Positions 1-21,975 of a DNA stretch of 64,000 nt are shown here, in pieces. Each line of letters starts with the position of its first letter. Within the stretch, counting starts at the first letter, position 1. Source of the stretch: Klebsormidium nitens (lineage: Eukaryota; Plantae; Klebsormidiophyceae); contig DF237250.1 in the NCBI GenBank assembly GCA_000708835.1, forward strand, positions 1-64,000, given 5' to 3'. The notes under the pieces are model-generated. The model was not told the origin of the DNA. It did not search any database and saw only the letters and a list, made by a program, of their open reading frames with translations. The position numbers and the translations under genes were made by a program.

Positions 1-282
1 GAGTCAATCTTAGACACGAGAGAACCTGCTTCCAACCATCACCGGCGGTTGTATGAAGCACGCTATCGGCACTCGAATCTGGACAAATATAGAGATTGGT
101 CTTGTAAGCACTATAGCAAAGCTAAAGTGGAGATATGTTTACGCAAAGCTTTTATCCGATATTCCGAAGGCAAGAGGCTTCGACCTTCCACCATGGCAAA
201 GCTTGTAGTTGCCGGTTATTTGCAAGAAGGCAACTTGCATTCGAGGCCAATGAACGAGATCTGTCAGTGGACTTGTCAATGA
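1..282 (+). CDS. Small basic hypothetical protein, reading frame open from base 1 (5'-truncated by window)
   Basis: Frame reads ESILDTREPASNHHRRLYEARYRHSN...; C-terminal part resembles the ORF at 5728-6144 (RYR...I.L..A..R...G...P.T..KL..AG). Confidence 0.45.
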   Translation, partial: ESILDTREPASNHHRRLYEARYRHSNLDKYRDWSCKHYSKAKVEICLRKAFIRYSEGKRLRPSTMAKLVVAGYLQEGNLHSRPMNEICQWTCQ

Positions 283-434
283 TGTGCTTCTCCATTGCAT
301 GTTCCATCGGACCGGCCGTTGCTTTTCACACGTTTGCATGGAGGGCGATTTCTGTCAAGATCAAGATTTCAACGCGTCCGGATTCTAAGAATTATTTTCC
401 TTAGTACTCATCATAGGGGGTACCCAGCCCTAGA

Positions 435-2901
435 ATGAATCCGGACCTCAATGAAAGCATCTCATCGTACCGGAGCCTTGATCTCCTGCCGGTTACGTTC
501 AAGCTTACATGGAACAAACTGGATAAGAAGAAAGACGCAAGTAACTTTAGATGCTCATACTCAAGCATCGTGGATGAGATTTCTTGGGGGTTGCACGAAG
601 ACACAATTCGCAACTGTTCCGACAAGAATGCCCTTGCCCTTCTATGCGGACGATCGGGCCCAAACAGCATTATTATGATTGATATCGACTTGCCCAAAAT
701 GAATGAAAGCAAAACCTTTGCTAATGGTCTTGATGTCTGGAAACGCTTGACAAAAGCGCACGGCGAACCTCTCACCTGGACAGCCGAAACACAGAGTGGC
801 GGCTTACATTACTACTTCAGAGCGGATTCCCCCGGACTTGAACGGAAGGCAGACGCGACCAAGTTATACATCAACTCCAGCCAAACGACTATCGATTTTC
901 GAGGCAATGGCATCTGCTTCGCCACCCCCCACTACCATCATTCGTGACGGTGAAGAGCATTCATACAGATGGCTAAAGTCTCCTTGGAAAACGAAGCTCG
1001 CCCGCCTTCCGTTGTGGCTCGTAGATATCTTGAACGCTCAAGACTCCACAAAGCAAGCTGCCCAAGGGCCGGCAAAACACCCCAGCAATAATACATCAAT
1101 TGTCAGCAAAGCAAAAGCAAAACAGACAATAACCACAGAACTCTTGTCTCCGCAAGCAACCTCCTCTATCGAGGCAGAAAAGGCAATCCAAGTTGCAACG
1201 CAGCTACTGCGAAGTAGATGCAACGACCAAACAAGTTTCTACAGAGGCATCAAGCTTCGAGATGGGGAAGCCATCTTAAAGTTCAGAGTGAAGGAGAGCA
1301 GAATTTGTCCTTACGGAGAGGAACATACGAGCAACAGTTTCAGCATCATCTGCAACGGGATCTGCATGGAATACCGCTGCCTGTCAACAGGATGCAAAGA
1401 GCGACAAAGAGTGCTTCTCGGGCTGCACCATTGGCCTTCGCTTTCGATTTCCAAAGCACGTTTTGATCTGCGCCCTATCGAAGAAGCGGAGAGGATCGTA
1501 TCCAACGCTAAAAGCACTATTGACAAAGTGCAGTATCAACATGTATGTCAGCAACTCACACAAATTGCTATCGAAACGATGAACCACTATTTCTGCGTTC
1601 TAGACGGCAGCTTAAAAGTGCTTTTCATTGAAACTCTCTACGTGCAAAGAGGAAATACTTGGGTGCCAAATGACAGCATCCTTCGAACAAGAGCTGAGTT
1701 CCTGAAACGGTCCGAATCATTCAACCTGGACAGTCTCAAGATTGGCAACCTTGGGAAGGTGTGGTGCAAGTCATCAGCGAGAAGGACGCTCAATAAGGTA
1801 GTCTTCGAAGCGAACTCTCGTCTGGTTTCACCTGACAACTACAACCTATTTTACGGGTTTCCCTTTGCTTACGAAGCGCATCAACCTGTTGACATGATAG
1901 AAATCGATCCTCTCTTGAAGCATCTCAACGAGGTATTGGCAGACAATGATCCTGCTGTAGCAGAGTACATTCTAAATTGGTTAGCTCATCTTGTTCAGAA
2001 GCCGTACAAAAAAATCGGAACAGCTTTGGTCTTCAGATCTGACCAAGGCGCAGGCAAAAGCATAATCACTGACTTTGTGGGCAAACACGTCATCCGACCC
2101 CGTTATTACTTGTACTGCAACGATATGGAGAAAGTCATAGGCAAATTCAACGGAATAGCAGCAAACCTCCTCTTGGTATGCTTTGATGAGGTGAGCTCTT
2201 GGGGGGGAGCATACAAATCGAACAATCGACTTAAAAGTCTGATCACACAGGATACAACAATCCTGGAAAAGAAAGGTATCGATCCCCTTCAAGTACCCGA
2301 TCTGGCTAATTATTGGTTCAACACGAACGAAGACTGGCCCATCAAAAAAGAGGCCACAGACCGTAGGTATGCATGCTTCGAAGCATCGGACTCTAGAATC
2401 GGAGATCAACCCTACTTTGATCGGCTTTGTGAAAGCCTCACTAGCACTACAGCTGAACATTTCTATCGGTACTTGATGTCAAGAGAAGGCGTCGATAACT
2501 GGAATGCAAAACAGATCCCCAAAAGCAAGTGGAGTTCAGCCTTAAAGGAGCACTCAATCCCCTTCTGGGCAAAGATGATATGCGGTCTGCTAGACAACGG
2601 CATATTTTCAGCGGATTTGAAGACAAAGGTGCTGAGCGCAACCATATTTAAGACATATAGATCCTTCTTGGACAATCAAGGCGCCAAGGAAGATCCACCG
2701 ACACAAAAAGACGTGTTCATCGGTCGCATCAAACGGACACTTGGACTTGACGGTTTCAAAGACACCACTGGTCGCGGCTTGATCTTTCCAACGAGGAGTG
2801 AGCTCGAGAAAAGGCTGCAAGAGATACGTTTACACGTCGACGAAGTGTACTGGGAGGGGTCATGGGCGTTCGACCCAACTCTTCTAAGCTCGTCGGCTTG
2901 A
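435..2901 (+). CDS. Intronless bifunctional primase-polymerase (Prim-Pol) + Zn-finger + SF3 (D5/NrS-1-like) helicase, about 820 aa, with one +1 frameshift at ~921-930
   Basis: 435-947: IIMIDID, TQSGGLHYYF, IDFRG (AEP Prim-Pol motifs). Continues in the 796-2901 frame after GCCACCCCCC (PPTTIIRDGEEHSYRW..LPLWLVDILN). CPYGEEHTSN..YRCLSTGC Zn finger; Walker A QGAGKS, Walker B VCFDE, motif C FNTN, DRRY. Confidence 0.88.
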
Positions 2902-2929
2902 TATTTTACAATTTCTAACCCATCACTTA

Positions 2930-3990
2930 TTACTTTCTCTCGTAAGTTAGCATCGCTGTTCCCCAGTCGTGGAGCATCCTATCGGCTAACTGCTTCCTTT
3001 CAGCAATAGAATGATCATTCGCGAAATGTTCGCTGATGAAAAGGTGACGAAGGTGGTTTTGATTTAATCGCTTTCCTTTTGGAAAAGTGATCGAGCCCAC
3101 AAATTTTGTAAGGTAATTGTCTGACATGGCTTCTGTGGTATTCCCCAGCCGAGACAGAACGAAACCTCGAGGAACTAGCTCTATTGATCGTTTTATGTAG
3201 TTGTTTAGGCGCTGTGAGAGTTCAAACTCTTTTGTCCCATACTTCTTGCTCGTCTTGTATGCCTTCAGTACAAGCAGGAACTCACCACTCTTGCTCTCAC
3301 GAAGGCAATTGCCGGTATCATGAAAGGCTGCTTTGGCCTCATCGCAATAAAAGGTTCCGTCCGCTTTCTGAAGAGGAAGACCGCTGAGATCCCTTCGCTT
3401 CGGTGGCTCGTGGATATTGAACGCAAGCAGTAGGTGCTGAAACACTATTTTTACTTCGTCTCTGCTCAGGTTTGATCCACCTTTATGATTTGGCATGATG
3501 CTCCTTCGTATCTGCCTGTTAAGCTCTTCCGCTTTGGCTTTCAACTCTTCCATAGAGATCCAATTGGCAGCTTCTTTCTCTGTGGCCTTCTGTTGGCCAA
3601 CCTTCTTCATCTGATCCAACTTCTTCTCTAAGAAGCTCTCAAAATACTTTTTATAAGTCTCCTCCCAACCCTTCGCGTGAGCACAAACCATTAACGGGGT
3701 GAGTTTATTCTTATAGGTGCCAGGGTTAGGGTACTTTGCGTTGAGTTTTTCAAGTATGATATCTACTGATTTGATCCAATCCAACGTGGATGGCAAAACC
3801 TTCTTGCCAGTCACCAGGGGATGGATTATTCGCACACTGTTGAGGTACTGTTGAATGGTTATTCAGCCCGTTTTCCATCCTTGAACAGGTTGCGCAAAGC
3901 TGCCTCACCTGATGATATCGTTCGCTGTGCATCCCCTTGACTGTTGGAAGTGAATTCTATGCTCGATTGAACGGAAGCTTCTGAGTCCAT
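2930..3990 (-). CDS. Tyrosine recombinase/integrase of the viral/PLV-like type, with one frameshift at ~3862
   Basis: PPKRRD (Arg), YKTSKKYG (Lys), NHLRHLFIS (xxLRH), LADRMLHD (His), MLTYERK (Tyr). An ATG at 3990 gives 43 codons that join ITIQQYLNSVRIIHP by a -1 shift. Confidence 0.85.
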
Positions 3991-4711
3991 GACTACCTTA
4001 TACTACAGAGGCCTATAATAATTCTAAGATTAAAACGAGGCGCCTTCTTGAGATGCGTCCCCTAGGAAATCCTGTTCTAGAACTCTTGGCTGCCCGGAGC
4101 GGATACCCTGGAAAAGATGTATCGACCATTGCCTCATTTGTCCTTACCACCTCAGGTGGCCTTTCCAAATTCCTACCTTCGCTGCTGAACGTGGGTAAGA
4201 CATGGGCTGCATATCCATGAAATTTGCCCTTTTGTCTCGATTCTGGAATTCAAAGACTTCAGATAGAAACACAAGCGGCTAAGATGCACCACCGTTTGAA
4301 TTCCAGATTCAGAGACAGGATCGTCAATCTTCCGCTGTAATCCAGAATTCAAATTCCAAGGCGGCAACTTTTTCCAGTCAGTGGTCATTTTTGACAAAAA
4401 CTCCCAGAAAGTTTTGCTCCCGGGGTCCCAGATTAAGTCCTAATTCGCGCGAAATCGGGACTCCCCCTTCTAGAATGGTGACGGAGGCCATTCATCTTTC
4501 AGAGTGCTCCATGTCGGGGACACGTTGATCAGAGAGGGGCAGTTTTCGTCAATCGGCTGTCAAATTTTGCCAGGTCCACGAGCCGACCAAAGTGCTTTAG
4601 GGGGGGCGACTTCTGAAGCAGGCAGCATGATGCACTGTGCATGGTTTTTATCTGATCTTACATTCATACAGCCGGTCCATGGATAATGCATGCTCATAAC
4701 GGAGCTTTAAG

Positions 4712-5272
4712 GTGCTGCTTGCACTCGACCACAATCAATCAGATGCTTCGATCCTCCTTGAAGACACTCGGCTGGAAATCGATGCTGAAAAAGGTCGTGT
4801 ATCACAGGCTGGCACACGCGCTGGAAGCCAGCTATTTAGGGCGCTTAAATCTGACGGTGCAGCTAAAGCACCCTGCACTGTCTATGTACTGCTGAGGGAA
4901 ACGACTAGAGGCTCATTGAAGAAGCATTTCGGATATGGAGTGTATATCTCTCTGGTGAAGAAGTCCGACAGGCCGCTCGGACTTCCGTTCCAAGGTACGT
5001 TTTCATCATCAGCAACCAAATTACCGGTCAAAGAGCTTCTTGAGATGCACGCCTCCGCAGAGTCGAAGCCAAAGAAGAAGCAACAGAGCACAAAGAAATG
5101 CAAAGCTGTGAGCAAAGCTACGAAGCAGAAATCAAAGGGCCATCCAAAATCAACTACTAATAAAGGCAAGGCGAAGCGATCAGCTACTACGGGCAACTCA
5201 GAAGCCACTGGAAAATCTCAGAGCAAGGGAATGACGCTCAAATGTGTTGCAGTCGAAAGCGACGGGGATTGA
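4712..5272 (+). CDS. Hypothetical protein with Lys-rich C-terminal tail
   Basis: 186-aa ORF within the island; no family recognised; start codon non-ATG. Confidence 0.3.
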   Translation: MLLALDHNQSDASILLEDTRLEIDAEKGRVSQAGTRAGSQLFRALKSDGAAKAPCTVYVLLRETTRGSLKKHFGYGVYISLVKKSDRPLGLPFQGTFSSSATKLPVKELLEMHASAESKPKKKQQSTKKCKAVSKATKQKSKGHPKSTTNKGKAKRSATTGNSEATGKSQSKGMTLKCVAVESDGD

Positions 5273-5319
5273 GAGACGAAGGCCATGCTAGATTTATCTT
5301 TCCTCTCTGATACAAAAAG

Positions 5320-5667
5320 ATGGAGAGAGGTCATACGTACTACGTGCCAAAGCAGCCACGAGGGTTATATAGTTTGCTTCCGTTTATCGACGAGATCGAG
5401 AGCTTTCCACCCTTTCGCTATGAAGGCATCGTGGATAAAGGCCTCAGAAGTCCAGTGGACATGGATTTCCTACGGATGGGCGTTTTGCTTTTACTTCACC
5501 AACTCTGTAACGAAGACCTCGTTGTGTCAGAAGACGACGTCAAGGCCATAATCTCAGCAGGTGTTTCGTACGGTGAATGTGCAGGGTATTCCGAGAAGGA
5601 GGGAGAGCTTCTATTGTCAATCGCCAAGGGGGTACTCAAGGTCTGCAAGGATGCCGAAGACGATTGA
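5320..5667 (+). CDS. Hypothetical acidic protein (115 aa)
   Basis: ATG-initiated, protein-like composition, co-oriented with neighbouring small ORFs, AT-rich spacers on both sides. Confidence 0.45.
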   Translation: MERGHTYYVPKQPRGLYSLLPFIDEIESFPPFRYEGIVDKGLRSPVDMDFLRMGVLLLLHQLCNEDLVVSEDDVKAIISAGVSYGECAGYSEKEGELLLSIAKGVLKVCKDAEDD

Positions 5668-5727
5668 AATTTGCGTTGATCTGTTGGAAAAAAATTAATG
5701 AGAGTATAACAGAACACTTACAACAGG

Positions 5728-6144
5728 GTGGAGTCGACCAGCAGCACTGAGATAACAATCACTCGTCTTGTCCCTTGTAACCTTTGCGGAAAGAAGCATC
5801 GTATCATTCAAAATGCACTGTTTCCAAACGACTCGGAAATTCCTCTATCGTCCGAGGGCGTGCCTCTGTGCAGATTGGTCCAATTGAACAGGCAAAATCG
5901 CTATAGACGTGACAGACAGTGTGTGCTCAAGAACAAGAGTCTCTGGTATCAGAAACATAAGCAGGCTATCTTGCTACAATTAGCTGCCAAGCGTCTAAGG
6001 AGTGGAAGGACTCGGCGACCTCATCCAAAGACCATCTCGAAGTTGAAGGAAGCAGGCGTCGAGTTTGATTCTAACAATAGAATTCTTACCGCCACGTCAG
6101 AGTCAACGGCAGCCGTTGACGAGCTAAAAGCTTCGAACCCTTAG
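5728..6144 (+). CDS. Small basic hypothetical protein with CxxC (CNLC); paralogue-like to ORF 1-282
   Basis: RYRRDRQCVLKNKSLWYQKHKQAILLQLAAKRLRSGRTRRPHPKTISKLKEAG aligns by eye with the 1-282 product. Confidence 0.45.
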   Translation: MESTSSTEITITRLVPCNLCGKKHRIIQNALFPNDSEIPLSSEGVPLCRLVQLNRQNRYRRDRQCVLKNKSLWYQKHKQAILLQLAAKRLRSGRTRRPHPKTISKLKEAGVEFDSNNRILTATSESTAAVDELKASNP

Positions 6145-6254
6145 CGAAGCTCAGGCTTCTAAAACGGGGATGGATTGAGACTCGTACAAGTGTATGTTTG
6201 CCGGAAGCTGCCATGCCAGTCTATCAATGCAGGCCGTTGCATTATGAATCTGCC

Positions 6255-6555
6255 TTCGTTAGACAGCACGGACAGTAAAGACGGATATCTCAAGATCTAT
6301 GGAATAAGCTGTTCTAACGGTCAGAGACATGCCATGATGCGATGCTCATGTTTGTCTGTGAGTGTGGGCCTTCACACAGAGGTTTGACTCGATAGACAGC
6401 ACGGACAGTGAAGACGGATATCTCAGGATCTATGGAATAAGCTGTTCTAATGGGCAGAGAAATGCCATGATGCTGGCAACCCAGTTGTTTGTCCGTTAGT
6501 GTAGGCTTTCACACAGAGTTTTGACTTGATAAACGTACGGACAGTGAAGACGGAG
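6255..6555 (+). repeat. Imperfect tandem repeat, ~133-bp unit x ~2.3, each unit beginning with the triple GACAG motif
   Basis: GACAGCACGGACAGT(A/G)AAGACGGATATCTCA(A/G)GATCTATGGAATAAGCTGTTCTAA at 6262 and 6395; degenerate third start at 6531. Confidence 0.9.
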
Positions 6556-9500
6556 TTTTCGAAGGAAAGTTAGGGAGATAAACACTTGTCTGCCATACGA
6601 TTTCTAGTCAAGGATACTCGCAAAAAGCCGCTGGATCAATGGGTGCGTTCAAGTCCTCTTGTCAATCAATGACCCTGCTTACCACTCTATCGTTCCAATC
6701 TACTATGTTCCGTTGGGTTATTCATTCAGTCTCCATCCTCGATAGCCCCTGATCTGATGGCCTGCGTCTACAAGTCTCGATTCGGATGGCTTTCCTGGAC
6801 CTTCCATGCCATGGGCTCTGCAACTCTTGGCTAAATCCTGAGTAGTGCGCATGGGGGGAGCTCCAGTATCCTCGAATCTGACGCCGTCAACTAGCCTATT
6901 CGGATTGTTGTAAGCCGCCATCAGAGACTCCGACGTCTCAAATGCTTTAATGTCGATGGTACCCTCGTTTTTCAGAAAAGCTGCGAACGGATCGTTTGAC
7001 TGCTCCCAGGACTCCATGTACCTTTTGCTAGTTTCTGGCATGTCAAGTAGCCTCCTCCCGTTCTGGTACCAGTCCTTTGCTCCTATCACCAGGAATACCA
7101 GCAGCTTCTCGACCTCTGCCATCAAAATGCTTTCGAGCCCATCATCTCTGACCCCATGAAGTGGGTTTCTGGGATTGTACCCCGCCTCCTCGGGGTAGAA
7201 GAAGCGCATTGGAAAGACCAGGGTAAGCAGACGGCGCTTCAGCGCAATGGTCCACCTCTTTGCACGCGGCGGGTAGTTGGTGCAGAGAATGTGCTGCAGC
7301 CAAAAAAGCCAGGAAAGAGAGACTTAGCTCGTAAACCGGCACCTCGGGTCTTGTCGAGTTTTCAGCGGAAGTCCAAGCGTTAGTTGACAGGGTAACTGTC
7401 CACCAAGGTAAGCATGCTTCTACGAATCTAGCTTCAAAGACAGCGCAGACAGCAAACACAGACTTCTCAACACTCTCGTAGAATCCGAATGAAATGGCAC
7501 GCATTTTCGTCTCCAAGGAAGAGCTCGAGCAGACGTCTCGAGCAGATTCTGTAAAAAAAGCCCCAAACAGCGGTGTTGTCTATCAAGTGCGGACCTTCAC
7601 TTGCAAACTGTACTTCACAGACACCATGGACAGCAAAGACGGAGATTTCAAAAGAAGTCAGAAGATGAATGGATGTCTGCCCGTCAGATTAGTGCTTTAT
7701 TACTCACCAGTTGTGTCGTTTCAAACGTGACGTAGTCGCGGTAAAGCGCTCTGCTCGTGATGGTTGCCTCTCCGGTGAGCCGTTTCAAGTTGCTCTCCGC
7801 AAACTCGTCAGTTTCTTCTGACTCCAAACAAACAGCCATCCGAACCCCTTGCAGTCCTTGCGCAGATCAAAAAGAGAAGTGCTTTTAGAATTCTGCTGCA
7901 AGATCCGCATACAAAGCAGCTCGCCCTTTTCAAAAAAGATGAAGCTCTATGGTCTAGCAATGCAATTACGAATCAGCACAGCTATACCTTGCATCAGAAG
8001 GCACCTCAGACGTTGTCTAGAACTTCTTACCTGCTTCGTCCGGGCTGGCGGATCCCTTACTGGGCGGCCGCTGCCCCTTCGAGGTCACCAGCATATCCTT
8101 TGACACATCCTTGTAGAACGGACCGATTAGGCGCTTCAAGAGCGTCAACAAGAGGCTCTTTCCAGCGCCGCCCTCCCCGATCATGATGAGCATGACCTGG
8201 TTGGAGATGTGACCCGTGATGCCGTAGCCTAGAATGCGCTGAAGATAGGCTAGAGCTTCTGGGGTGTGCATGATCTCCCTCAGGAACTCGCCCATTCGAC
8301 CTAACGGCGTGTGGACCCCAGTCGAAGGCCACCTGTACCCCAACATGAACGACCACAGGAACTGCAAAAGTAGAGTGTCGGGTGTCAGACTGCCTATCGA
8401 ATTTTATCCCTCTTTCTTCTTTTCACTTCAGTCGATGCGCTGGTTGAAGCACAGCTTTGCGCACTTTCTGAAGCGCTTGAAACATACAACGGAGTTGAAG
8501 TTTACGGTTAAAAGCACGCTTGCGGAGGCCCAGGCGGCCTGATCTTGGAAAGTTGGCTACCAGTTAGATACACGAAGTACTCAACTCCGAATGAATGACT
8601 CTAAAAGAAAGACTCAAGTGAGCCGCTCTCTACCCTCATTGAGATCGTCTCGCTCCTGCCTTTCGAACTTTTGGCCCAAGCAAAGGGAGCTTTTTCATTG
8701 CAGTACGCTTCGACTGCAAGCTCACCTTGGGATGGTGCGGTACTAACTCGGCACTCGGCAGGAGGATGACGCCGTTCAGCAAGGGAAGAGCGTCTCTGTT
8801 GGAGTTGAGCAGCTTCTCGAACCCCGCATCCAGGCAATAGCCTTTCAGGGTCGTCATGATGTTGGACATCCTTGCGTTCCAACTAAAGTTGGTCAGCTTT
8901 TCTGTCTTCTTCTTCTTTCTCTTCGGGGTCCGTTCCTCGCTGCCATCATCCTCCTCGCTCTCGTCTTGCTCAATGGCAGCCCCAGTCTCCTTTTGGTACG
9001 CAGCGCTGATCTTGTTGAGTTCTCCACGGCACACCTTCTGAGCCTCCCGCCCACCTGGGTCTGCCATCCACACCGACCCTGTCCAATAGTACCACTTCTC
9101 GTTGGAGTAGACGAGCTTGTGGCCGGTGTAGGTTTGCAGGCGATCGATGATCTGAGCGCCGCCTTCATCACCTGCATAGATTGCTGTGAGTTAGCACACG
9201 CTGGCACGGAATGAGAATCCAGTCTAGCCGTTTTAGATTGCAAAGATTCATGTGTTGTGCAGATTGCTTGTGCACAATTACCACCTTTGCAGACCCCTTT
9301 TTACGCCTGAATCAAGTATCGTTTGACCCATCGAAGACCAAATAAGGCACGAGAATATGAAACCGAAGCGAAAAGCTCTGTCTTTACTGTCCGCACTGTC
9401 CATGAAGAGGACTCTATGTTAAAAGATTCGCTTGACGGACAGAATGGCTGTCAGTGCAGGGTAGGCGTGAGATCTTGATAAAAGAGATCAGGTGGTCAGA

Positions 9501-12451
9501 GAGCAGGCAGTCCAAGAAAAAAGCTTCGTATGCTTGAGAAGTGAAGAGCTGAGTGGAGTGTTTTAAGCTGGCAAAGGCCCCAAGCCCCTCTTATTTCCAT
9601 ATTTGAGTCAGTAATCTTTTCGGACAGCTGATTGAAATAGGTTCTTGGACCTTTACCCTTGAAACCTCACCTGCTGCTATCGAGAGGTTCTCCCGTAGAA
9701 ACGAAAGGGGCAACAGCTGTCGGTCCTCGTACAGTCGATCCCGCTCGCTGTTCAACGGTTCTGCATCCGAAAACGCAGCCGCGACAGGGAAGGGAAGCCG
9801 TCCGAGCTTCTTGTTTCTGCGCCCCTCGCCCTTGCACCGCTCGCTGTGGCACACATACGTGATCTCCGTTCCTCTCCTAAAGAGGCCGAACTTGTTGCTG
9901 CGGTGTGCCTGCTCTCCTGCCTTGAGGTACGGGCAAGTCGCCCGGCCCCCAGGACCGTTCTCGAAGTGATACATCACAGCTCCTGAACCTGCAATCGTGC
10001 TCAGTTCTGGCTTGCGAAAGACAGAACTATTGTCCCCGTAGCTGCTGAGCATGCCCCGCATGATCTCGACGACTTGGTGTTGCAGAACTGGATCCGCAAG
10101 ATCGGGCGGATTCACCGAAGCGGGCGCGCACGTAATCCCAGCCCCTGCCGCAGCTGCTTTCCCAGCTCCTGGACGGCTTTTTGACGCCCCGGCTGCTTTC
10201 GAAGAAGCCCGCTCGTTCAGGATCTCTATGAACCATCCAGGGAGGGGAGGCAGAGCATCTACAGCTGGTAGGTCCCCTCCGCCTGCGACAGTGTACCGCG
10301 CAACCTCCTCGCCCCGCTGATAGGAAGACGGGGGGGACGCAATCATGCCACTCGAGCTCACGCCTCGCATATCACCCCCCACTTTCTTCAACGTTTCCTT
10401 CCCCGTTTTCGGGTCCGGGATCCTGAGCTCGAACTTCGCAAAGTGCGTTGGTGTGCCTGCCTCTTAATCCCGCGTCCACGCTTCGTTGATGCGAGAAGTA
10501 GAGATGGACACCCCCACTGCCGGTGCGCACTCGCGGCCCCGTGAACGCGCCGTGCTCGCTCTCCCACTCAGCCAGCTGCTCCATGCCCCCGTCTTGAAGA
10601 TCGAAATCCAACACGAGAACGCCAGAAGGCGCTGTGTTGATCAGCAGGGGATTGTCGCGGGGGTCGAAGTATGCTGAGCTGAGGCAGTTGGCGAGCGTAG
10701 AATCTTGCCACTTCTTGGGTGGTAACATGGCCTTCTTGCCCGTCTTAGTGTTGAAACTGGTGGATGCTGAGAAAACGACGTAACCCCTCTTGACCATGGC
10801 CCGAGCTGCAGTCTCCTGCACAGTATAAAACTTTCACTTTTGAGCAGCCAGTCCAAAACTTTGTCCGCGCTGTCCGCACTGTCCATGAAGAGGACTTTGT
10901 GTTACGATGGCTTCGCTTGACCGACAGAGCGCGTGATGGATGCAATCTTTCAGAGCAGACCATTCAGTCGGAGAGCAGGCGGTCAAAGTCAAAGCTTTTT
11001 CTCTTTGCACGAGAAGTGAAAATAACTGTCTACGCTGTCCGCACTGTCCATGAAGGGGAATCGCTTATAGAAGACACAATCCATAGACAGCACCGATGTC
11101 CAACGTAAGTCCAGGCGTTGGTGGACACACTTACTGTTCACCAAGAGAAGCATGCTTCTTGCGAACTTGCCTTCAAAAACAGCGCAGATGCCAAAGACAG
11201 ACTTCTCAAACTTTCGCAAAAATCTCACAGAAGGATGCACCAACATCGTTATTGTCAGTTGAAATCAACGTCTCTGAAAGGTGGAGCTCCTTGAGGATTT
11301 GTTAGAATGACTCACCATTGGGTATACTCTGGTCTCTCCTTTCGTTTCAAGGCGCGCATTGGACCAACTCAAGCCCGAGGTCTGTTCCCCGTCCTCTTTG
11401 AACGGCTCGTCATTAGCACCTTTGCAGTCCTCCCCTGATGCTGATGGCCGCGCGAGCTCTCCCGAACCCTGCAAAGAAGTCAGAAGAAGTGACAAATCAG
11501 AACTACTGAAAAGCTCTGTCTATGCTGTCCACACTGTCCATGAAGAGGACTCTGTGTTAGATGGCCTCTCTTAACAGACAAGCATTCTGTCAGCGCGCGT
11601 GATGGATGCAGTCTTCCAGAGCAGACCAGGCAGTCAGAATCAAAAGTTGTCTTATGCACGAGAAGTGAGAAAACTCTGTCTTTACTGTCCGTGCTGTCCA
11701 TCATGGGAAATCACTTATAGAACACGCATTTGCATAGACATCACTGCTGTCATCTGGCTGAATCTTCAAGGGGCAACAGATTGCATTGAGCACAAGCCCA
11801 GGTAGAAAATGTCTCACTTAGCAGCCAGGGCTTGCGCTCTTGCCGATGCTTCCCTGGGCCGTGTTTCCCTGCAGAGACTTCCTTGCGGCTCACTGGTTGA
11901 GCCATCGGCCCCTGCTTCATTGTGTTTGCGTTTTCTGCCCCGTTCGTGTTGGATGGAAGGGGCGCTAATCTACACAGGACAATATGGAGCGTCTCAGATC
12001 AGGGGATCCTCTGTGCAGGCAATGGTCCTGCCTTGAACGTCCATTCGTTGGAGACATCATGCTGTCTCTGGAGACAAAAGCTTGACAAGGGATTCGTCTC
12101 GAAGGACAGCTTGGACAGCAAAGACAGGATCTGTGAGAACCTGATGACTGGTGTTTTTGTAATCTGCGAATAATTGTCAGGCCCATACTCATCAGATTGG
12201 GTCACTCACTGGTGCAAGTTCACCAAGGAAATTGGTCCTACAGTGACGCATCCAATCTACTCGAGTGTTTCTTCTTCTGACTTTTCTTCAAGACTCTGTC
12301 TTTACTGTCCGTGCTGTCTATGGAGCAAATCCCTGTGCGAAAACTTAAATTGATAGACAACATATCGGCATGGCATCATGACATCTTTATGCCAAAAAGA
12401 ACAGGTTATTCCATGGGTCTCAAAAGACCTGTCTTCACTGTCCATGTGGTC
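6262..12451. repeat. Dispersed family of triple GACAG-N4-GACAG-N4-GAC(A/G)G motifs (14 copies, both strands)
   Basis: Plus strand: 6262, 6395, 6531 (degenerate), 7439, 7620, 11178 (degenerate), 12105. Minus strand (CTGTC x3): 9378, 10861, 11026, 11516, 11676, 12296, 12429. Confidence 0.88.
6718..11468 (-). CDS. Spliced Prim-Pol + Zn-finger + D5_N + P4/D5-type SF3 primase-helicase (about 930 aa modelled), one +1 frameshift at ~10390-10463; further 5' exons possible
   Basis: Exons 11468-11316, 10815-9671, 9171-8726, 8361-8031, 7856-7708, 7293-6718 join through GT-AG introns with matching phases (0,1,0,1,0). Motifs: VLVLDFD, TGSGGVHLYF, DMRG, CPY..HRSN..VCHSERC, WYYWTGSVW, LLNGV..PHHPK|FLWS, GEGGAGKS, AVCLE, KRLTGEATITSRALY, LCTN, KRRLL. 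Confidence 0.85.
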
Positions 12452-13083
12452 TATGAAGGCCAATCCTATGCGAACGGATTCTCTAACCAGAACATACTCG
12501 AAGGAGAAGGACAAGGTGCAGGCAGCAGCTTTACCTTGTCATCATCCAGCTCAGCTCGAAGGGCTGCCCTCCTCTCCTCGAGAGCACTGGTGTAGAGTTG
12601 CTGTCTCGCATCCTTACCATATAAGCTCTCCATCTGCAAAACACACCAGAAATGCATCGTCAAGAACGTGACCTACCTGCACCACAGCTTTCAATGTTTA
12701 GGTTGAACAGGTTGCAACCTAGACAGAACTTCCACTCGACCACTGAAAACACCACCATCATTGACAAGCAGCCAGTGTTCTTCTAATGCTCATGACAACT
12801 TGCATCAGCGAGTGACCAGTATATTGGCCACGCGCTCACTTTGTGGGACTCTCATGAGCAAGGAAACCCCTTGACAGGGCGCCAAATCTTGATCGAACAC
12901 CTGTCTGCTGCTCAGCTAGGGTGCCCTCTGCTGGATAACATCGGGCTGCAGGGCTGCATTGGCGACGCAGGATTATGCGTGTGCTGCTCCTGAGACGTGG
13001 GTTGGACGCCTGAGCTAGCGGCTTTTGAGGGGCTAAGAAAGGATTGTGCTGGATGAATGATCGAACGAGGGGGCAGGAGCTCC

Positions 13084-13378
13084 TTTTATAGGTCCCTTTC
13101 AACCAACTGCCATGAACCAAAGTCTTCTCTGGAAGCCCTGAGTCAGACTCTCCTCCAGCGATTCCGAAGCGGTTGAGCGATTCCGAAGCCATTCGTAGCT
13201 CTCTCTGAAGAGGGGAGCTGACTCAAGACGAGTGCCAACTCAGATGGTTGAGCGCCGGTTCCGAAGCTTGCTGTCTCTCAATAGGAGACCTGACTCAGGC
13301 TTCTGAGCAGATTAGGGTTTAGCCGGCATGGCACGTGGTCGAAAAGGCACGTGGTCAATGCCTTACAGTTGCGCGAAA
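13084..13378 (-). promoter_or_regulatory. Candidate promoter upstream of the spliced primase-helicase: TATA, telo-box, G-boxes, E2F site
   Basis: Minus strand: TATAAAA 13090-13084, AAACCCTA 13320-13313, TTTCGCGC 13378-13371; CACGTG twice at ~13332 and ~13348. Confidence 0.45.
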
Positions 13379-14315
13379 ATTTTTGGCTGGTTTCTTTCCC
13401 TCCACGGTAACCCCAGAAAGTCCCTAACCCAGACCAGTTCGAGGGGCAGCTTGGCCAGGGGGGCTGGTTTCTCGGCCAGGGGGACACGTGTCGCGCGGAT
13501 ATTGGCTGAGCTTTAGCCAGCAATCTCTTGGTTAGAGGGTCCCGGCTCCCGGTCCGGTTCGGCTGACATGGCGCCCCCTGATTGGCTCCAATTTGATGCC
13601 GAACTTTCTTGGGCTTGTAGGGGCCGCAGCTGCAGTCCGAATTCAGCAAGAGTTAGCAGTCCCAAGGGGCTGACCTGTCGCTCTCTCAGTGGCCAAACTT
13701 CCATGCCGAGCTTCATATGGCTCGCTGGCCGAGCTTAGCTCGGGAGTAGAGCCACCTAAAATAACAACATATAATGACACCACAACGTTGGACAAGCCAA
13801 CTCAACCCTTGCGTGCACATGTGTTAAAGCCTATAATGATACTACAGTGTGCAAAGCAGGACATCAAAGGATGAGCCTCCCCAAGACACAGATCGTTTCA
13901 TCAATGTTGTCATGAGTACATTATATCAAAGACATGGGGCGAGGTAGGTCATGATAAGTCGAGTAGGCGGCCACTAAGTCTCCAATCAGCTGTTCCGTAT
14001 AGCATCTCGATGTCACACGGCAGTGGACCGAGTGCGACGCAGCATAGCTTAGCATGGCATGCTCACTTTGGAGAGTGGTTGCATATGCACCATAGAGGCT
14101 CGGTTTCTATATTGATTGACGCTCCAGGAAATGATGCGTATGCATGCCACTATAAGTCGCTGAATTATGAGACCACAGCAAAGCAACACATGTGTCAAGA
14201 GAATGCCTATGCCGTAGAGACTATTGAGACCTCGATAGACACCCAAGTTAAAAGCTCAGCTCTTGCTTCCTCATGTTCAGCCGCTTGATATGAGACCAAA
14301 CTTTTAGGTATCCTT

Positions 14316-17300
14316 TTAGGTATCCAATAAGGTCGGGTGGAATATCTTGCACACCGCCTGAAACTGTTCCATCGTGACGTTGGTGCTATAGGTTCTCACC
14401 TCCCTAGAGACCCCAAAAGGATAGAATAGGTCGTGCAAGCCTCGCACAAAGGACTGCAAAGCGCCTGGAATGTGCCCCAACTCTTTCAGAGATGGACCCA
14501 ACATGCTACCTCTGCGGACAAACTGGGCCTTCTCAAGATTGTTGATATCCATCTCATGTCTTCCATGGAGCTTGCCCCCGCTACATCTGTCTAACATTGA
14601 TATGAACAACCCCTCTAACATGCTGCTCTCCGTGTGAGGCTTGCCGCATAGGATAGACAGTGGGGCATATACTAGGGTGCCTGTAATCTGCTGCACACTC
14701 CCTGTGGGGCTGGTTGGTTGGTCTCTTGGATCTGTGTTTGGTGGAAGAAGCTGTAACAATGAGCAAACGATAGTTCTTAGGAAAAAGTAGCCGAAGGCTA
14801 GATGCAACGAAGTCCATGGACGCGAAGTCCTGCAGTACAGCTTCCACATCAGCTATTCAATCGTTAGGGACTCACAAAGCTATTGATATTGACGTAGTCA
14901 TCCAGTCTGTAACAGACATCTTGACAGTCAGACTTGCTGCTACAGCATATTGAAGAAGACCTCGCACCTACCTTCCCAGCCGAGAAGTCAAACAAAACAC
15001 CGCGGCCCTCGTAAACGCCAATGTTGTTTGGTGTCACGTCGCGCTGCAGCACGCGCGCCTCAATGCACCCTCGGATGGCACGCGCAACGTCGGAAGTGAC
15101 CTGAGACAAGGGGAAGCAAGATCACGAAAGTGGGGAAGTTGCGTGAACAGTGACAGTAGCTATGGTACTTGGTTACCTTTAGATGGAACCTCTACATGAT
15201 AGGGCTTCGTTCAAAAAGGGGCTCGATCATATAAAACGAATGTTAGACCACCCCTGGATGCTTGCAGAGAGCTTCTTAATCTTGTACTTAGGTAGCTTTG
15301 TGGTAGTCAAGAAACCGCCCTACAACATAGTCTAGACCAGAGCGGTTGGTAAGCGTGTAACACAGAGGACTTTGGAAGGTCTGCTTCTCGTCAAGGAAGC
15401 TAACAGCTTCATAAGCCTCCTATGTTGTCCAAGATGCTAGGAGTGAAGAGGTTCCGTGCTTACCTGAGACAGCAATTGGAGGCCAAGTTCTGACGTGACT
15501 GGTTGAGCAAACGGATGCAGCAGGACCGCGTGCCACTTCGATGACTGGTACTTTATTACATCCGCAGCGAGGAGAGTCACAACTCGTGGGACTTGGTGTT
15601 TGGTCAGCTCTGAGAGGAGCAAGGTCTGGGCACAAAAAGCAAAACCTCATTCATGGCATTTGTGTTCCACTAAGATTCAAGAATGAAGAGGAGTCTGCAC
15701 AAAGCAGCCGAAAGTCTTCTGAGGACTAAAGCAGCACTGAAGGATGAGAAAAGGAACACCCAGTAAGAGAGTGCTTTGGGACTGTCAGTAAACGAATCCG
15801 CAAATGACCATTTTGTATGGACCAATAGAAAGTAAAATTTGTTCCCTTCAAGGTTGGCAGAATAACTACGCATATGGCCAGCAAAAGAAGCTCAGCACAA
15901 TCTTCGTTTGAAGCATGTGTTATCAACAAATCAAGCAACATGAAGAACGTGGTAGATCTTGCAAGGTCTGAACTACACAACAGAACCAACCACGTATGCC
16001 TTCCAGCTATTAACATAGATCACATAAGTAGGCAGATTCGACTGACAACCAGAGATTGCTCACCTCACGCTCAGATTGATTGAGTTTCAGAATGCACCGA
16101 CCCAGCCCAGCAATCCGCGCTTGGAACACCAGACTACCCTGGCCCTGAGGCGCTGTGCCTCTGTGCACCCGAGGCGCCCTCCCTCTGTCCAACTGGGGCG
16201 CTGTGCCTCTGTGCAGCAGCTCGAGCTTTTCTATCTTCTTGTGCCCAAGCTTTTTGACAGACGGCACGGTTAGTTGCTGAAAGCCAAGTGCTTTCTTTCC
16301 GCTAGCGAGCACCCTTAGCACCCAAATGAAGCCTGGAGACTCTTCACTTACACTGAAAGGATTGGCCCAGTCCTTTGCACTGAGAGCACCTCGAGATGAT
16401 GGCGGGAGAAAAATGCCACCTCTACTGAGTTCATTGTTATCCCAATAGTCACCATATGAGATCGCTCTGGCTGCTGATCTAGCGTACTCCGGACTCTTTT
16501 TGTTTGCTGGCCGAAGCTGTGGTGCGTTTCAGGAATCGAGTGCCCCAGTTTCGCTTCGACGAAGGACACCGCTTGGGTCCAGGCAATAATTGGCGAAGCG
16601 AGAAGACTGCAGTCGGGTTTGCCTCGGGGGTTCTGAAATTCATTGCTTGAGCTATGGGTATCTTCTAGCACCATCTCGCACTTTGCAGCCTTCGCCATGG
16701 CTCCTAAGATGGTCATGAGAACAGGCTGCATGTGCTTTTCTTCTGACAGTCCTGGTTCTTTAGCTTCCGGAATTGCATCAGCAAGCGAGAGGCCTGGAAG
16801 ACCTGTCGGAAGCTTCAACTCTGGGTTTGGCTGATCATCTTCATTGTCCACGTCAACGGCCTGACCTGCTTCGTCGCGTCTCCGCTTTTCGCCAGCAGAC
16901 AGTTGCTCTGCATTTTCGCAAGAAGAGGAGGAGGAGGACATTGTTGAAAAGCATTTTCTCAACGATGCAAATAACGATGAGGACCAGAGTTGAACAAGCA
17001 ACTCATGAAAAATCCCTAAGAGCTTACCCAGGAGCATCCAGCTGCTTCTTCGCTGCTTGCAAGACAGCCTAGCATTGTAAGCATCCAGAATTGTAAACAA
17101 TTGCAATCCTCAAGTTGCAAAGAGACTGCGACAGTGCAATGGAACGTTGTTAATAGGTCAACGAGCCATCACTTACTTTGCCTCTTATAGACCGCACCCT
17201 CAGCTACTGCAGTGGGGAAGTTTTTCAAGACTTCGTTGACGGCAGTCTTCACCATCTTCTTGGATACATGAGCGAGGCACCGCATCTCCTGAACCACCTC

Positions 17301-18811
17301 CGCAAGCTGATAATGCATCTGTACAAAGTAAACGCAGTTTGAACACAGAGAGCTCTTCCGTCATAATCAACTTTAGAAGGAGGCTGAAAGCACCTCATAG
17401 TTAGAGTGGCTTTTAAAGAGAGCTTCGGTCCGCATTGCTACCGACTCAAATGGCAGAGCTGTAGAAACAGCATAAGCAGACAGTCGGCTTGCAAACCAGA
17501 AGCTAGAACAGGCCTGGTCAAGTATCGACTTTGCGGGAGTAGAGCAGCAATAGTGAAACAACAACAGATCATGCAGTGCCTGCAAAGCACGCCAAAACCT
17601 GCAATAAGGATCCAGAGCCCCATGGGCAAACATTTGCAATCTGAGATACTTCTTGAAGCAGGAACAACATGGCCAACTTGATGAAAGGACACGCTGGCCA
17701 CACCTGTCCAACATCTGTCTCGATCCAGGTTGTTTGCATACTTTTGTTGTTGCGCATTTCCAGCTGCCGCATCCGTAAAGTGTGGGACTCGACCATTTTC
17801 TGCAGGGACTCAACCTGTTTCTGCACAGCCTGGGTAGCACCGACTCCAAGCTGAGCGGCTTCAGCGGCGCCTGCAAATGTCCACCAAACGAGCAACTAAC
17901 AAGAGAGCTCGACCATATTCAGTATCATGGACAATGATCCGACCTGAACATTCAGAAACGGCTGCAAGTGCTGGAAGCCGTCTTTTGGGCTTGCAAACCC
18001 AATACATAGTAAGAAACACTCCATGCCTAGCATGCACTACTGTCCTCGGCATAGTTGGCGAAGGGAGCAACTATATCACCTGCCAACACCTTCTGATCAG
18101 CAAAGTCCCCTCTCATGCCATCATCTCCAAGCCTCCCCGCCGCTACATGCTGACCAGCAACACCAGGAAGCTCGTTTCCGTCCTTTCCAAATTGATGAAA
18201 ACCTCTAGTCCTGATATCCAAACAGACTAGCCTACTAGCTAGCCTAATCATCTCACAGAAGGAGCTGCTTACCTGCAGCTTTATCGAAAATTGCATTCCA
18301 GCCCAACAACCAGTTCCCTGGCCCTGGATACTCGCGTTCAAGTCGGTCAAGAAGCTTAGAGCGGCCATCATCAGTCATCCCTCTCCAGCGTTCCAAGGTG
18401 AGCTGCTGCTTTGCCAGGTGGTTCAGCAGGTCGGAGTCAATGTCGGAGTCGACTTCCTGCCAGCTCTTCTTCAAAGCCAGCTCTTTCTCCTGTAGTTGGG
18501 CGACAACAAAGATGTGCACCACAATGTGCAGCCCACTCTTTAGCGGCATGGACACTAATAAGAAATGCCACAAAGCTGCTCCCTGATGCCTGAATACAAC
18601 CAGCGCTGACCAGTCCCATCCTGAACTGCGGGGATTCCCTTGTCCAGACTCACCTCCTGCGAAGTGGGCCCAGGGTTGCTTTCCACGCCACCCCTAAGGA
18701 GAAGAGTCGCTGCACATAAGGAGACCACAAACAGGTGTTGAAGGTCTGACGCAGCTTTCATCCTGAACCGATCAGGGGCTGAAAGTCTGACGCAGCTTTC
18801 ATCCTGCACCG
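14316..18811 (-). pseudogene. Multi-exon Crinkler-like REase-domain + fungal-type (FunK1-like) protein kinase, one frameshift at ~16365; N-terminal 2A-like peptide
   Basis: Phase-compatible exons at ~18.8-18.65, 18.49-18.27, 17.87-17.69, 17.31-17.17 and 16.9-16.06 kb, then kinase exons at ~15.59-15.47, 15.11-14.97 and 14.75-14.32 kb. KPD..W....FVEAK..GQ..R..QQPER (REase-like); VLQRDVTPNNI, LFDFS, TGTLVYA..HT..LEGLF (kinase). Confidence 0.72.
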
Positions 18812-19834
18812 ATGAGCAACCCCCAAGCAAGTCAAGGGAACCATCACGGCAGGTCAAGACCGAAGTGGTCCACAGCCAATTGCATACTGAACCCGAGTGC
18901 TCTTTAAATGCTTGCAGACCCAGAGCCACGATCCAAGTTCCTTACCTATAAGTGACCGGCTCTGGGGCATGGACACCCAGTCCGTCATACTGTCGGACTG
19001 CTGCCAAGCTGCAAACGGTGGTGCGCTGGGTGCATCTGCCCAAAACCTCTCACTTTGGGATCCACTCCAGACTGCAACCATAAAGAGTGACATTAAGTTG
19101 CCGTCACTATTGATCGAAGTGTAGAATGCACAGCAGAAGAGGGTATAACGCATAAGAGGCGTGACAAAGAATGGGCTGCCCTTAAATGTGCATAAGAGGA
19201 CAACCGACTGAGTCAAATTGCGCCACTCGCTCACCTGATGTCCATTTTGCAGCAGGTGAGGTTCCGTCCAGGTTACGCAGCTCCTCTTCTAAACTCCTCT
19301 CCTTTGCTCTCAGGTGGCGCATCTCTGTATCCTCTGCCCATGCTGCAAGAGTATACAAAAGCATGTAAATTCTTGACAGTCTTTTCAAAGGCTCCTTGCT
19401 GACCACTGAAGAAGCAGCTATGAGCTTTGCATGAGACCTAGACCGTGTCAACAGCAGGCTCCCCAAATGCCCTCACCTGCGCGGTCTCGGTCAACTCGAA
19501 AGAAACCATTGGAAGTGGCATGAGCTCTGCACGAGTACTTCACGCTGCCCCCCTCCTTGCTTCCCCTCAGCCCGAAGTCTGCAGAGGCTCCGCATGCATG
19601 GCAGTGGAGACTGTGCAAGTCTGCAATGAAGAAGCGCAGAGGTTTGGTCATGAACCTGGAGCATAGATGTGAAAAGCATGCAAGACTTGGTGCGTGCCCC
19701 TTCCTTTTGCAAGTCATGTCTCTTTCTTCTGGCAGTGGGTTTGGAGGTTTGTGATTGACAGCAGGTATCAAGAATCAGCCTCATATCTTCTAAAGAAAAA
19801 GAAGTATGGTACGTCCCAGGGACAACCATGCCCG

Positions 19835-20413
19835 CTAAGACTCCTCAGAATCTTGTGATAAACTGCAGAGCCAGCCACCCTTCACCATTCTGACCCCACT
19901 ACCAAAAGTAGTGTTTTCGAACTTAATTCCTTTCATTATCTGAAGATTTCCTGGTACACATTGCAAGGCCAGCCCACCAGTCACCTTTCTATCTTGCAGC
20001 ACAGAGCATTCAAGCTTCTGCTCTGCCTCGGCCTCACAAGGTAAACCAATCAGAGAAGCCATGCACCAGAACTCACCTCTTTCTGCAGCTTTGCCAAGCG
20101 AATGTTCGAGGCCCTTCTTTGCTTTCTTCTTTACACTGCCAGACCCTTTGCAAGCACGGCCCCCTGTGAACATCCGAGCCGCCCGTGCCTTGGTCTTCGG
20201 CGCCCTCGACTTCTGCCCCCGCCGCCTACGAGGGGCATCCTCGATGTTGCACTTAGCATTCACAGCAGCGATGCGTGCCTCCTGCTGCTCAGCACTGATG
20301 GCGATTCTCTCCCTGTACTCAGCGGCGCGTGCATGACGAGCCTCCTGACAGACTCTGTGATCGGACTTGGACCGGCCATGAGGCCGGCCTCTAGCCATGA
20401 TGAGACAGTGCAA
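19835..20413 (-). CDS. Basic hypothetical ORF, possibly an upstream exon of the Crinkler-like kinase locus
   Basis: 192-aa ORF on the same strand; further exon-like segments at ~19.2-19.35 kb; junctions to the 2A exon not resolved. Confidence 0.3.
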   Translation of the reverse strand: MHCLIMARGRPHGRSKSDHRVCQEARHARAAEYRERIAISAEQQEARIAAVNAKCNIEDAPRRRRGQKSRAPKTKARAARMFTGGRACKGSGSVKKKAKKGLEHSLGKAAERGEFWCMASLIGLPCEAEAEQKLECSVLQDRKVTGGLALQCVPGNLQIMKGIKFENTTFGSGVRMVKGGWLCSLSQDSEES

Positions 20414-21975
20414 GGACCAGCTTTCCTGCCCCTACAAAACCAAGAGGAATATAGGAGACTGAATAGTAATTTGTCTCAACAAACATCCAGATGCACAATC
20501 ACGAGGCGTTTGCACCTTTACTACGTATGCAACTCTCACCAGTGCAGACTTACAAACACCAGAGGAACAACCCTTAAAACGGCATCCACCTTCTTCAGAC
20601 TGAGTCGCTCAGTTGCGTTCTTCAAGCTGGTCCAAAAGCGGCAGAGCCAACCTCTGCCTGACACATTGTTCTATATTATGAGGGCACATAGAGGCAACCA
20701 GATAAGCAACTTACGTTCACAAGATCCTCAGACGCGCTTCAGAGATGCGCCACTACAGCAGTCCGCAGAATGCCAATTCCTGTGCCAACTTGCCGGGCAA
20801 CCTGAAAGCCCTGAGCCACACCAAGCTGCCCTGCAGCTCCCTAAAGCCCGGCCGCTTTTAGCTCTGTCAACCCTTAGCAGGAGGTCTAAACGCTGACCGC
20901 TTAAAAATACCAGAGGTAACCATTGAAACTTTGGAGACTCAGCTGGAACAAATCAATCTCAAACGACAACGTTCTTTTATCGAAGTCCTGCGATGGGAAC
21001 GGTCTGCTTGGTAACGGTATCCCCTGTCCCTGACTGGGCTCGAACCTCAAGCGAATTGAAGGAAGTTCCGGAATATTTGTTCGGGGGGACACGTGTCAGG
21101 TTCTCACTGGTCACAATTATGCCAACAATCACTTGGTTAGTTGCTTGGTCAGGGCCAGGGTCGGGTTCACATTGGACTTTTTGCCCTAATTCGGTCTGCC
21201 ATGATTCGCAATTGGAAGTACCCATGCTGACGTTTTAGCAGTTTCGGATTACGATAGCCAGACTGGGTTCACATTGCAGTTGGGTCCGTCGAAATACGTC
21301 TCGTAATTCAAAACTCTCGTCTGGAGCCATGTGACTGACCACGTGAATCGTATTGAGTACACTATGTACACAAAACCGTCAGCAAAGGCTGAGGCGTGAC
21401 GATATCCAACCTGTACTTATCGTGATTGGGCTATCCAGATTCCAAACCGCGTTTCGATAGCCTCCCGGATTTGAGTAGGTTTTCGACTTCGATAACTTTT
21501 GAAGTTCGAAGAATTGACCGTTAGCTCGCCGACTCTGGCGGGGTGACGCCGAGTGACGCAAGTCTAGCTATCGAATCACGATAAAAGTTTTGAGAAAGTC
21601 CAATGTGAACCCGACCCAGGCTGCGCAATACCGTACGTAGACCCATCTGCATGTTGCTAGGTAGTCGGAGCTTTCCTGCCAAGATCGCCAATGCATCATT
21701 CAAGTGGCTCATTCAAGTGGCTCATGAGCAGGACGATAAAAAGTCAGCTGCCCGAGTTGTGCATCTTGGCGGCAGGCCCTGGGAAATTTGACGCCCGCAA
21801 CTTCAAGGAGCTCTTGCAAAGCTCACCGGTTGCCCGCCATGGTAGCGGAGGGTGGTGCTCAAGGTCCCCTCGAATCTCCAGTTGCTGGCTTTTATTTGCC
21901 AGCCGTAGGAGAATTTATTTGATTTTGAGGGACTTAGGTGTTTCACTACCGCAACAGATTTAGAAAGACGTCATC

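Follow-up and report, generated by a model that had tools for sequence, protein, structure and literature searches.

An eight-intron, frameshifted and transcribed virus-type primase-helicase gene belongs to a multi-copy family in Klebsormidium nitens

What is a viral-type replicase gene doing in an algal genome, interrupted by spliceosomal introns? It might be a domesticated gene, a gene caught while gaining introns, or one member of a mobile family. The locus lies on the minus strand of the window analysed here, positions 1-64,000 (64,000 nucleotides) of contig DF237250.1 in the Klebsormidium nitens assembly GCA_000708835.1. An earlier note, made from the sequence letters, had joined small open frames between 11468 and 6718 into one primase-helicase gene with five introns.

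The five introns of that model (11315-10816, 9670-9172, 8725-8362, 8030-7857, and 7707-7294) are correct in coordinates, lengths, and GT..AG ends. All five are skipped in contigs of six of six RNA-type runs, from five studies, and in none of one DNA run; none of the runs is on record as RNA and the label is a guess, but they behave like RNA in that they skip GT-AG introns. The four predicted junction peptides (IAAG|DEGGA, PHHPK|FLWS, DEAG|LQGVR, and TTQL|HILCTN) all occur in protein P0001, the annotated spliced product. What the earlier note had named as grounds for abandoning its model was not seen: there are spliced contigs, and the introns have canonical ends. The gene start at 11468 did not survive; this position is a splice acceptor, and the transcript continues to at least 13278. 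RNA contigs reveal three further introns upstream (12839-12634, 12534-11970, and 11817-11469), giving eight introns and nine exons. All eight are GT-AG and are skipped in contigs of 6/6 RNA-type runs and in none from the DNA run, the behavior of U2 spliceosomal introns. A single 3,604-nt RNA contig spans the transcript from 13180 to 6506, and the 3' ends of RNA contigs fall at 6412-6573. The neighboring stretch 1-6300 has no cover in three RNA-type runs, which serves only as a control against DNA carry-over and does not imply that the stretch is silent. In several runs, introns 8 and 6 are retained in low-depth RNA contigs (windows 7265-7737 and 8334-8755). The features of the locus are as follows, with "motif" in the intron entries standing for a triple-GACAG motif.

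13300..13500, minus strand: likely promoter, with an E2F-type site, a telo-box, and three G-boxes as candidate motifs
12840..13278, minus strand: exon 1, 5' leader with upstream AUGs, from RNA contigs
12634..12839, minus strand: intron 1, 206 nt, GT-AG, joint found in 6/6 RNA runs, missed in the earlier note
12535..12633, minus strand: exon 2, begins with ATG, two open frames
11970..12534, minus strand: intron 2, 565 nt, three GACAG motifs, missed in the earlier note
11818..11969, minus strand: exon 3, neither open frame continues into the open frame of exon 4 (frame break 1)
11469..11817, minus strand: intron 3, 349 nt, two motifs, missed in the earlier note
11316..11468, minus strand: exon 4, acidic open frame, ATG at its end directly before the donor
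10816..11315, minus strand: intron 4 (the first of the earlier note), 500 nt, two strong motifs and one weak
9671..10815, minus strand: exon 5, Prim-Pol motifs I and II, then III; frame break 2; C-H-C-C motif at 9834-9935
9172..9670, minus strand: intron 5, 499 nt, one motif, 8-nt repeat across the junctions
8726..9171, minus strand: exon 6, D5_N, and a basic stretch resembling a nuclear localisation signal
8362..8725, minus strand: intron 6, 364 nt, no motif
8031..8361, minus strand: exon 7, SF3 helicase Walker A
7857..8030, minus strand: intron 7, 174 nt, no motif
7708..7856, minus strand: exon 8, Walker B
7294..7707, minus strand: intron 8, 414 nt, two motifs, on the plus strand
6573..7293, minus strand: exon 9, motif C, arginine finger, C-terminal domain (likely a winged helix), stop at 6718
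6718..10370, minus strand: 733-aa frame, intact after splicing; the annotation (KFL_003010010, 725 aa) begins at 10346
6234..6586, plus strand: 3' flank, made up of tandem ~133-nt units that each contain the triple-GACAG motif, directed into the gene

The single ORF of ~930 aa that had been proposed is not encoded, since the exons of that model total 2800 nt, which is not divisible by 3. One surplus base at about 10464, between Prim-Pol motifs II and III, shifts the frame. The alignment with paralog P0003 follows one frame down to about 10450 and the next frame beyond, and 7/7 relatives inspected read through the site in a single frame. We rejected an assembly error at this position, because all six RNA runs carry the exon 10815-9671 with 0 gaps and 0 other letters; the surplus base is thus also in the mRNA, and the frameshift is both genomic and transcribed. 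A second frame break lies between exons 3 and 4, upstream of Prim-Pol, and rare splice forms, invisible in contigs, could bypass it. In the dominant mRNA, the 733-aa frame, with 18 AUGs upstream of it, is accompanied by two upstream ORFs (219 and 116 aa) and a truncated primase of 148 aa. The 733-aa frame, a Zn-finger/D5/SF3 helicase annotated as K. nitens KFL_003010010, is the only intact one, and the Prim-Pol domain is split in this copy. A programmed +1 recoding event that restores the full protein would account for the presence of the shift in the mRNA and for family-like sequence in both frames on either side. However, the seven relatives inspected stay in one frame at the site and there is a further break upstream, so we rejected it, giving it next to no probability. 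The copy could at most yield a primase-less helicase, if ribosomes pass the 18 upstream AUGs, and KFL_003010010 is probably a non-autonomous, decaying member of its family.

The region upstream of the transcript has several candidate promoter sites, namely TTTTCGCGC at 13378, which we take to be an E2F-type site, AAACCCTA at 13320, presumably a telo-box, and CACGTG at 13490, 13353, and 13337, which we regard as G-boxes. The numbers expected per 450 nt are 0.08 (E2F-type), 0.02 (telo-box), and 0.16 (G-box), for motifs that were picked after viewing the sequence. Over 13051-13500, DNA depth at 80% identity is about double that of single-copy sequence, so sequences like the promoter region are present elsewhere too.

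The assignment of the protein to the Prim-Pol/D5 primase-helicase type in the earlier note was right, as both PF09250 (Prim-Pol) and PF08706 (D5_N, E = 6e-8, in exon 6) match. The three Prim-Pol catalytic motifs are not in one frame here (I-II vs. III), whereas they are in one frame in the paralogs P0003 and P0195. The 733-aa frame contains D5_N together with the SF3 Walker A, Walker B, motif C, and arginine finger, although only the second acidic residue of Walker B is kept. It also keeps a zinc-finger-like C-H-C-C motif, which presumably resembles the UL52/PrimPol type; no Pfam match of the UL52/PrimPol kind was found for it. The predicted model of this frame (pLDDT 88, pTM 0.81) matches viral D5-type primase-helicases. 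Helices and a hairpin are predicted at about 640-725, a candidate C-terminal winged helix, with no profile match there. An Atlas search returned mainly phage clusters with the same domain set. For the fold of an outside relative (P0015), the viral matches mix giant viruses, a virophage, and phages, and therefore no donor can be named.

Is this gene alone in the genome? Protein searches found at least 14 annotated K. nitens loci on 14 scaffolds, a count that leaves out a more distant truncated K. nitens protein (P0037). The assembly is reported to comprise 1,814 scaffolds and 104 Mb (PMC4052687, consulted in part). Ten of the 14 loci lie on scaffolds under 50 kb, and among the remaining four, three have a tag number that is the first or second of the scaffold, so that most loci are on short scaffolds or close to a scaffold end; these positions probably reflect repeat-rich surroundings of the family loci. 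A quick maximum-likelihood tree was made of the helicase region, for which 142 of 201 proteins had sufficient cover. The 10 K. nitens proteins placed in it fall into a single clade (SH-aLRT 99) that divides into three deep branches, its tips being only 0.005-0.04 apart, and this helicase-region tree gave no resolved sister group for the clade. Most of the gene models are partial, and several members are transcribed, with paralog transcripts found in the RNA runs. When motifs were checked in 15 proteins (13 from K. nitens and two from outside), the primase and Walker motifs were both matched only in P0003 and the two outside proteins; P0004 is also one fused frame, but its model begins inside motif I. 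One highly covered paralog has a 74-nt deletion in both DNA and RNA, with which the split model pair KFL_006900030/40 is consistent. The DNA depth over most of the gene is 1-2.7 times single copy.

A dispersed multi-copy family with recent duplicates and decayed copies is what is expected of a mobile element. The alternative that the earlier note had offered, an intron-rich mobile-element family, thus fits at least 14 loci, near-identical recent duplicates within old subfamilies, and many partial models. We consider it probable that the family is selfish or mobile. Our fuller reading, favored on balance, is that it is an old, intron-rich, virus-derived selfish element family, and that this locus is a transcribed, eight-intron, frameshifted copy. 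The direct observations behind this reading are that the gene is spliced and frameshifted, that it belongs to a family with a single clade, and that the motif is confined to the locus.

How old are the introns? The earlier note had proposed that intron gain could be seen here by comparison with an intronless relative 4 kb away. The neighbor, at 417-2901 (plus strand), is a Prim-Pol/Zn-finger/DUF5906 helicase without D5_N, with 24% identity to the gene over about 200 aa, in the N-terminal/Zn-finger part only, and with no DNA similarity. It is split in two frames near 920-945, where a 1-nt gap at 922 distinguishes one other copy, and it has its own K. nitens paralog. We therefore rejected the neighbor as an intronless ancestor; it belongs to a different, multi-copy family. 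Furthermore, in 20 of the 33 relatives examined the match to this gene begins or ends within 3 residues of one of its junctions, a count based on the ends of gene-caller fragments, some of them from metagenomes. Matches that break at junctions often then show intron-like read-through. The relatives that break at shared junctions include proteins at 41-45% identity and one at 30%. The RNA of a paralog is joined at the intron-5 site, and a DNA contig follows exon 5 and then diverges inside intron 5. We infer that the intron positions are common to subfamilies 30-45% identical; the introns would be older than the subfamilies, because distant relatives break at the same junctions.

Introners were considered as a source of the introns. 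Five of the eight introns share internal blocks at 73-92%, and none are alike end to end. No introner-type ends were seen in the eight introns, terminal matches being at most 10/25. Of the eight, intron 5 alone is flanked by an 8-nt repeat, lying across its two junctions (9167-9175 and 9667-9674), the pattern expected if an AG/GT site had been duplicated. An introner origin was rejected on the lack of terminal inverted repeats and on the positions common to distant relatives.

Window positions 1-6200 are intronless, 46% GC, and multi-copy, with a DNA depth of about 45-195 vs. 24 (3-8 times single copy), and are a second virus-like element family. Further ORFs of this stretch are at 2930-3862 (minus strand), 4700-5272, and 5710-6144 (both plus strand). 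On the other side, at 14316-20900 (minus strand), there is an intron-rich gene that by eye looks like a degenerate FunK1-type kinase with an upstream cysteine cluster; its fragments gave no Pfam match, and its CpG ratio is low (0.58). Inside it, at 18665-18700 (minus strand), is a motif ending in VESNPGP, which we take to be of the 2A-like ribosome-skipping type. At 21964-23946 and 28951-31597, both strands carry long ORFs that overlap, have high GC or skew, and gave no Pfam match. Ordinary host genes are recognized only past 40 kb (40250-58585), and encode polyketide cyclase/START-like, pyrimidine 5'-nucleotidase, and sulfotransferase-like proteins.

The surroundings bear on whether a nuclear DNA virus with introns (Polinton-like, mirusvirus-like, or giant) integrated many times and left the loci as relics, with introns of viral origin and a decaying gene. 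The closest full-length outside relatives, at 30-33% identity, are single ORFs on contigs of 4-24 kb and share the Prim-Pol/Zn-finger/D5 layout, and a multi-copy intronless viral-type stretch adjoins the gene. AEP-SF3 fusions are described as common Polinton-like-virus replicases (PMC12220804, in part), and intron-rich viruses exist, according to sections of PMC12768974. The wider replicase group includes one fungal member, a Coemansia protein (P0040), which is also a lead to similar fungal elements. On the other hand, fragment scans saw no capsid or packaging domain nearby. The neighbor is at 3-8 times and the gene mostly at 1-2.7 times single-copy depth, so they are not one unit, and the promoter and splicing are host-like. 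Short exact peptide matching, a weak negative, found no family locus in viral contigs (IMG/VR), metagenome contigs, or genome contigs. Six IMG/VR loci from a wider alignment are 28-31% matches, and the five that could be placed in the tree fall outside the family. The best phage matches are at 25-30%, and 0/602 cover 80% of the query. We regard viral relics as an unlikely account of the family.

A domesticated host family is another reading, in which the alga uses retained viral primase-helicases to replicate or repair its own DNA, this copy being either a primase-less helicase or a pseudogene of recent origin. That the gene is transcribed in five studies, has a host-type promoter, and keeps 733 codons open counts against the selfish reading, as these features fit a host gene too. 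Clean splicing in those studies, E2F-type and telo-box motifs near the start, old shared introns, and an intact Walker A, motif C, and arginine finger across the 733 open codons all agree with a host family, as does the finding that 14 of the 24 differences listed against paralog contigs, a program-selected subset of about 1,450 rows, are at third codon positions (p = 0.01). However, this third-position bias is equally expected of an active element. The many partial or broken copies, the very recent duplicates, the clustering on short scaffolds, and the two frame breaks and 18 upstream AUGs of this copy argue the other way. Domestication, as claimed in the earlier note, was not borne out at this locus, where the primase frame is lost in one of at least 14 loci, and we think a host family a rather unlikely explanation overall. 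Viral genes of K. nitens are reported to be enriched for methylation in the available text of PMC12344493, and methylation of giant-virus genes in Klebsormidium also appears in that of PMC11244446; the expressed KFL_003010010 does not obviously follow this pattern.

The selfish-element reading draws further on the repeats of the locus. A 24-nt unit with three GACAG at 9-nt spacing has 14 occurrences, in introns 2, 3, 4, 5, and 8 and in the 3' flank, and is absent elsewhere in the window. All 14 copies lie outside exons (p about 4e-5). Two-unit matches number 21 between 6200 and 12500, against none in the remaining 57.7 kb (mean of shuffles 0.065), and stricter matches number 9, compared to 0.01 expected. 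The left copies are 5+/0- and the right copies 2+/7-, mostly inward (p = 0.02, for a split chosen after looking). The motif is embedded in larger units of 133-165 nt. Introns 3 and 4 are 73% identical over 260 nt, and introns 4 and 8 have 117 nt in common at 79%. The 3' flank has an inverted match of 72-74% to 12264-12460; as this match stops inside intron 2, exons 1-2 and the promoter lie outside it. DNA contigs join the motif blocks in other orders, so other loci carry them too. At 80% identity, DNA depth over the introns that carry the motif is about 1-2.6 times single copy. The motif had no matches in viral contigs; in 596 Gb of prokaryote genomes it had 47, all of them single and unclustered, and we treated these as chance. 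No Rfam match was found in 1-21000.

The inward repeats and the inverted match between the 3' flank and intron 2, together with the blocks of 100-260 nt that the introns have in common, would also suit a gene carried as a passenger of a larger DNA transposon, the GACAG repeats being subterminal transposase sites or small non-autonomous insertions. No target-site duplication or clear terminal repeat was seen around the whole transcript, and motif introns at about 1-2.6 times single-copy depth do not indicate an abundant small transposon. Nor does the locus look like a cut-and-paste element, as there is no transposase, no duplication, and only a degenerate inverted match that ends inside intron 2. 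A Pfam scan of 43 + 149 stop-to-stop fragments, which is weak for split genes, found no integrase, transposase, or capsid domain; the count of 43 leaves out the two Prim-Pol/DUF5906 neighbor ORFs and the gene exons. Likewise, Pfam/PHROG searches of ORF fragments found no capsid, packaging ATPase, or integrase near the replicase, in a window that starts in a repeat and with a method weak for divergent or split genes. The transposon passenger is very unlikely.

What might the repeats do in a selfish element? Short repeats adjoining a replicase gene are the layout of the iteron-type origins of P4 and PICI. P4 alpha binds origin repeats via its winged helix (PMC4234260, in part), and PICI origins have two iteron sets (PMC6092414, likewise in part). 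By analogy, the triple-GACAG motif may possibly be the replicase's own binding site, a tentative assignment. As argued in the portion of PMC4234260 that deals with pRN1, Prim-Pol/SF3/winged-helix replicases assemble at stem-loops, not iterons, and this counts against a GACAG iteron model.

The mechanism that we propose follows the selfish-element reading. A viral primase-helicase gene would have entered the nucleus and acquired its introns and a host promoter in a single episode; since then it has likely spread by DNA copying, leaving few fused and many partial copies. An intact member would give a Prim-Pol/Zn-finger/D5-SF3/winged-helix protein that enters the nucleus and may bind the triple-GACAG repeats in its own introns and flank as a loading site. 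The replicase could then unwind and prime at the repeats, amplifying its own locus. Since no integrase was found in the locus, we ascribe the insertion of new copies to host repair or to an integrase encoded elsewhere. The host-type E2F/telo-box promoter may time expression to S phase. It is conceivable, though doubtful, that this is a new class of element, a capsid-less, integrase-less, intron-rich primase-helicase gene with a cell-cycle promoter and intronic iterons as its origin, which would multiply by itself in streptophyte algal nuclei.

The usual description of viral replicase genes in algal genomes is of methylated relics with few introns, whereas this family is spliced, transcribed, and still duplicating. 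It would be a case of a viral replication gene that persists long term as a nuclear gene family in an early-branching land-plant relative. If the intronic repeats are binding sites, a replication origin would lie within introns, and the element would amount to a type of DNA transposon without its own cutting enzyme; if instead the family is domesticated, a streptophyte has an unrecognized second primase-helicase. A literature search, which covered few subscription journals, found no paper describing the family, its shared introns, or its motif. In the accessible part of PMC5294986, giant-virus core genes are reported in Klebsormidium with an apparently empty D5 column; the D5 tree and gene-context figures of that paper may include these proteins. 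A spliced, expanding viral-replicase family with a locus-confined repeat is thus apparently undescribed.

How does the family compare with known systems? The giant-virus D5-type proteins (ASFV C962R, poxvirus D5/E5), known here as search matches only, similarly have primase, Zn-binding motif, D5_N, and SF3 in one chain (Foldseek E 2.5e-24, TM 0.54, with a weak sequence match). However, the primase here is Prim-Pol (PF09250), the identity is about 14%, and the Klebsormidium gene is nuclear, spliced, and multi-copy, with no viral neighbors seen. The AEP-SF3 replicases of Polinton-like viruses and virophages, as far as the consulted part of PMC12220804 goes, have the same domain fusion and occur as repeated copies in algal genomes, whereas no capsid, packaging ATPase, integrase, or terminal repeats were found here, and the gene has eight introns, at positions that are old and shared. 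P4 alpha, PICI pri-rep-ori, and pRN1 ORF904 also combine one primase-helicase gene with adjoining short repeats in the accounts seen of PMC6092414 and PMC4234260; here the setting is a eukaryotic nucleus and the repeats lie inside introns, while pRN1 uses a stem-loop. Mirusviruses and decaying giant endogenous viral elements are known to have genes with introns (PMC12768974), and introner-invaded Polintons are another source (PMC12166617), both papers being cited from partial text. These are likewise viral genes with GT-AG introns, but the introns of the present gene are 174-565 nt long, lack introner-type ends, appear to be common to subfamilies of 30-45% identity, and are spliced in culture.
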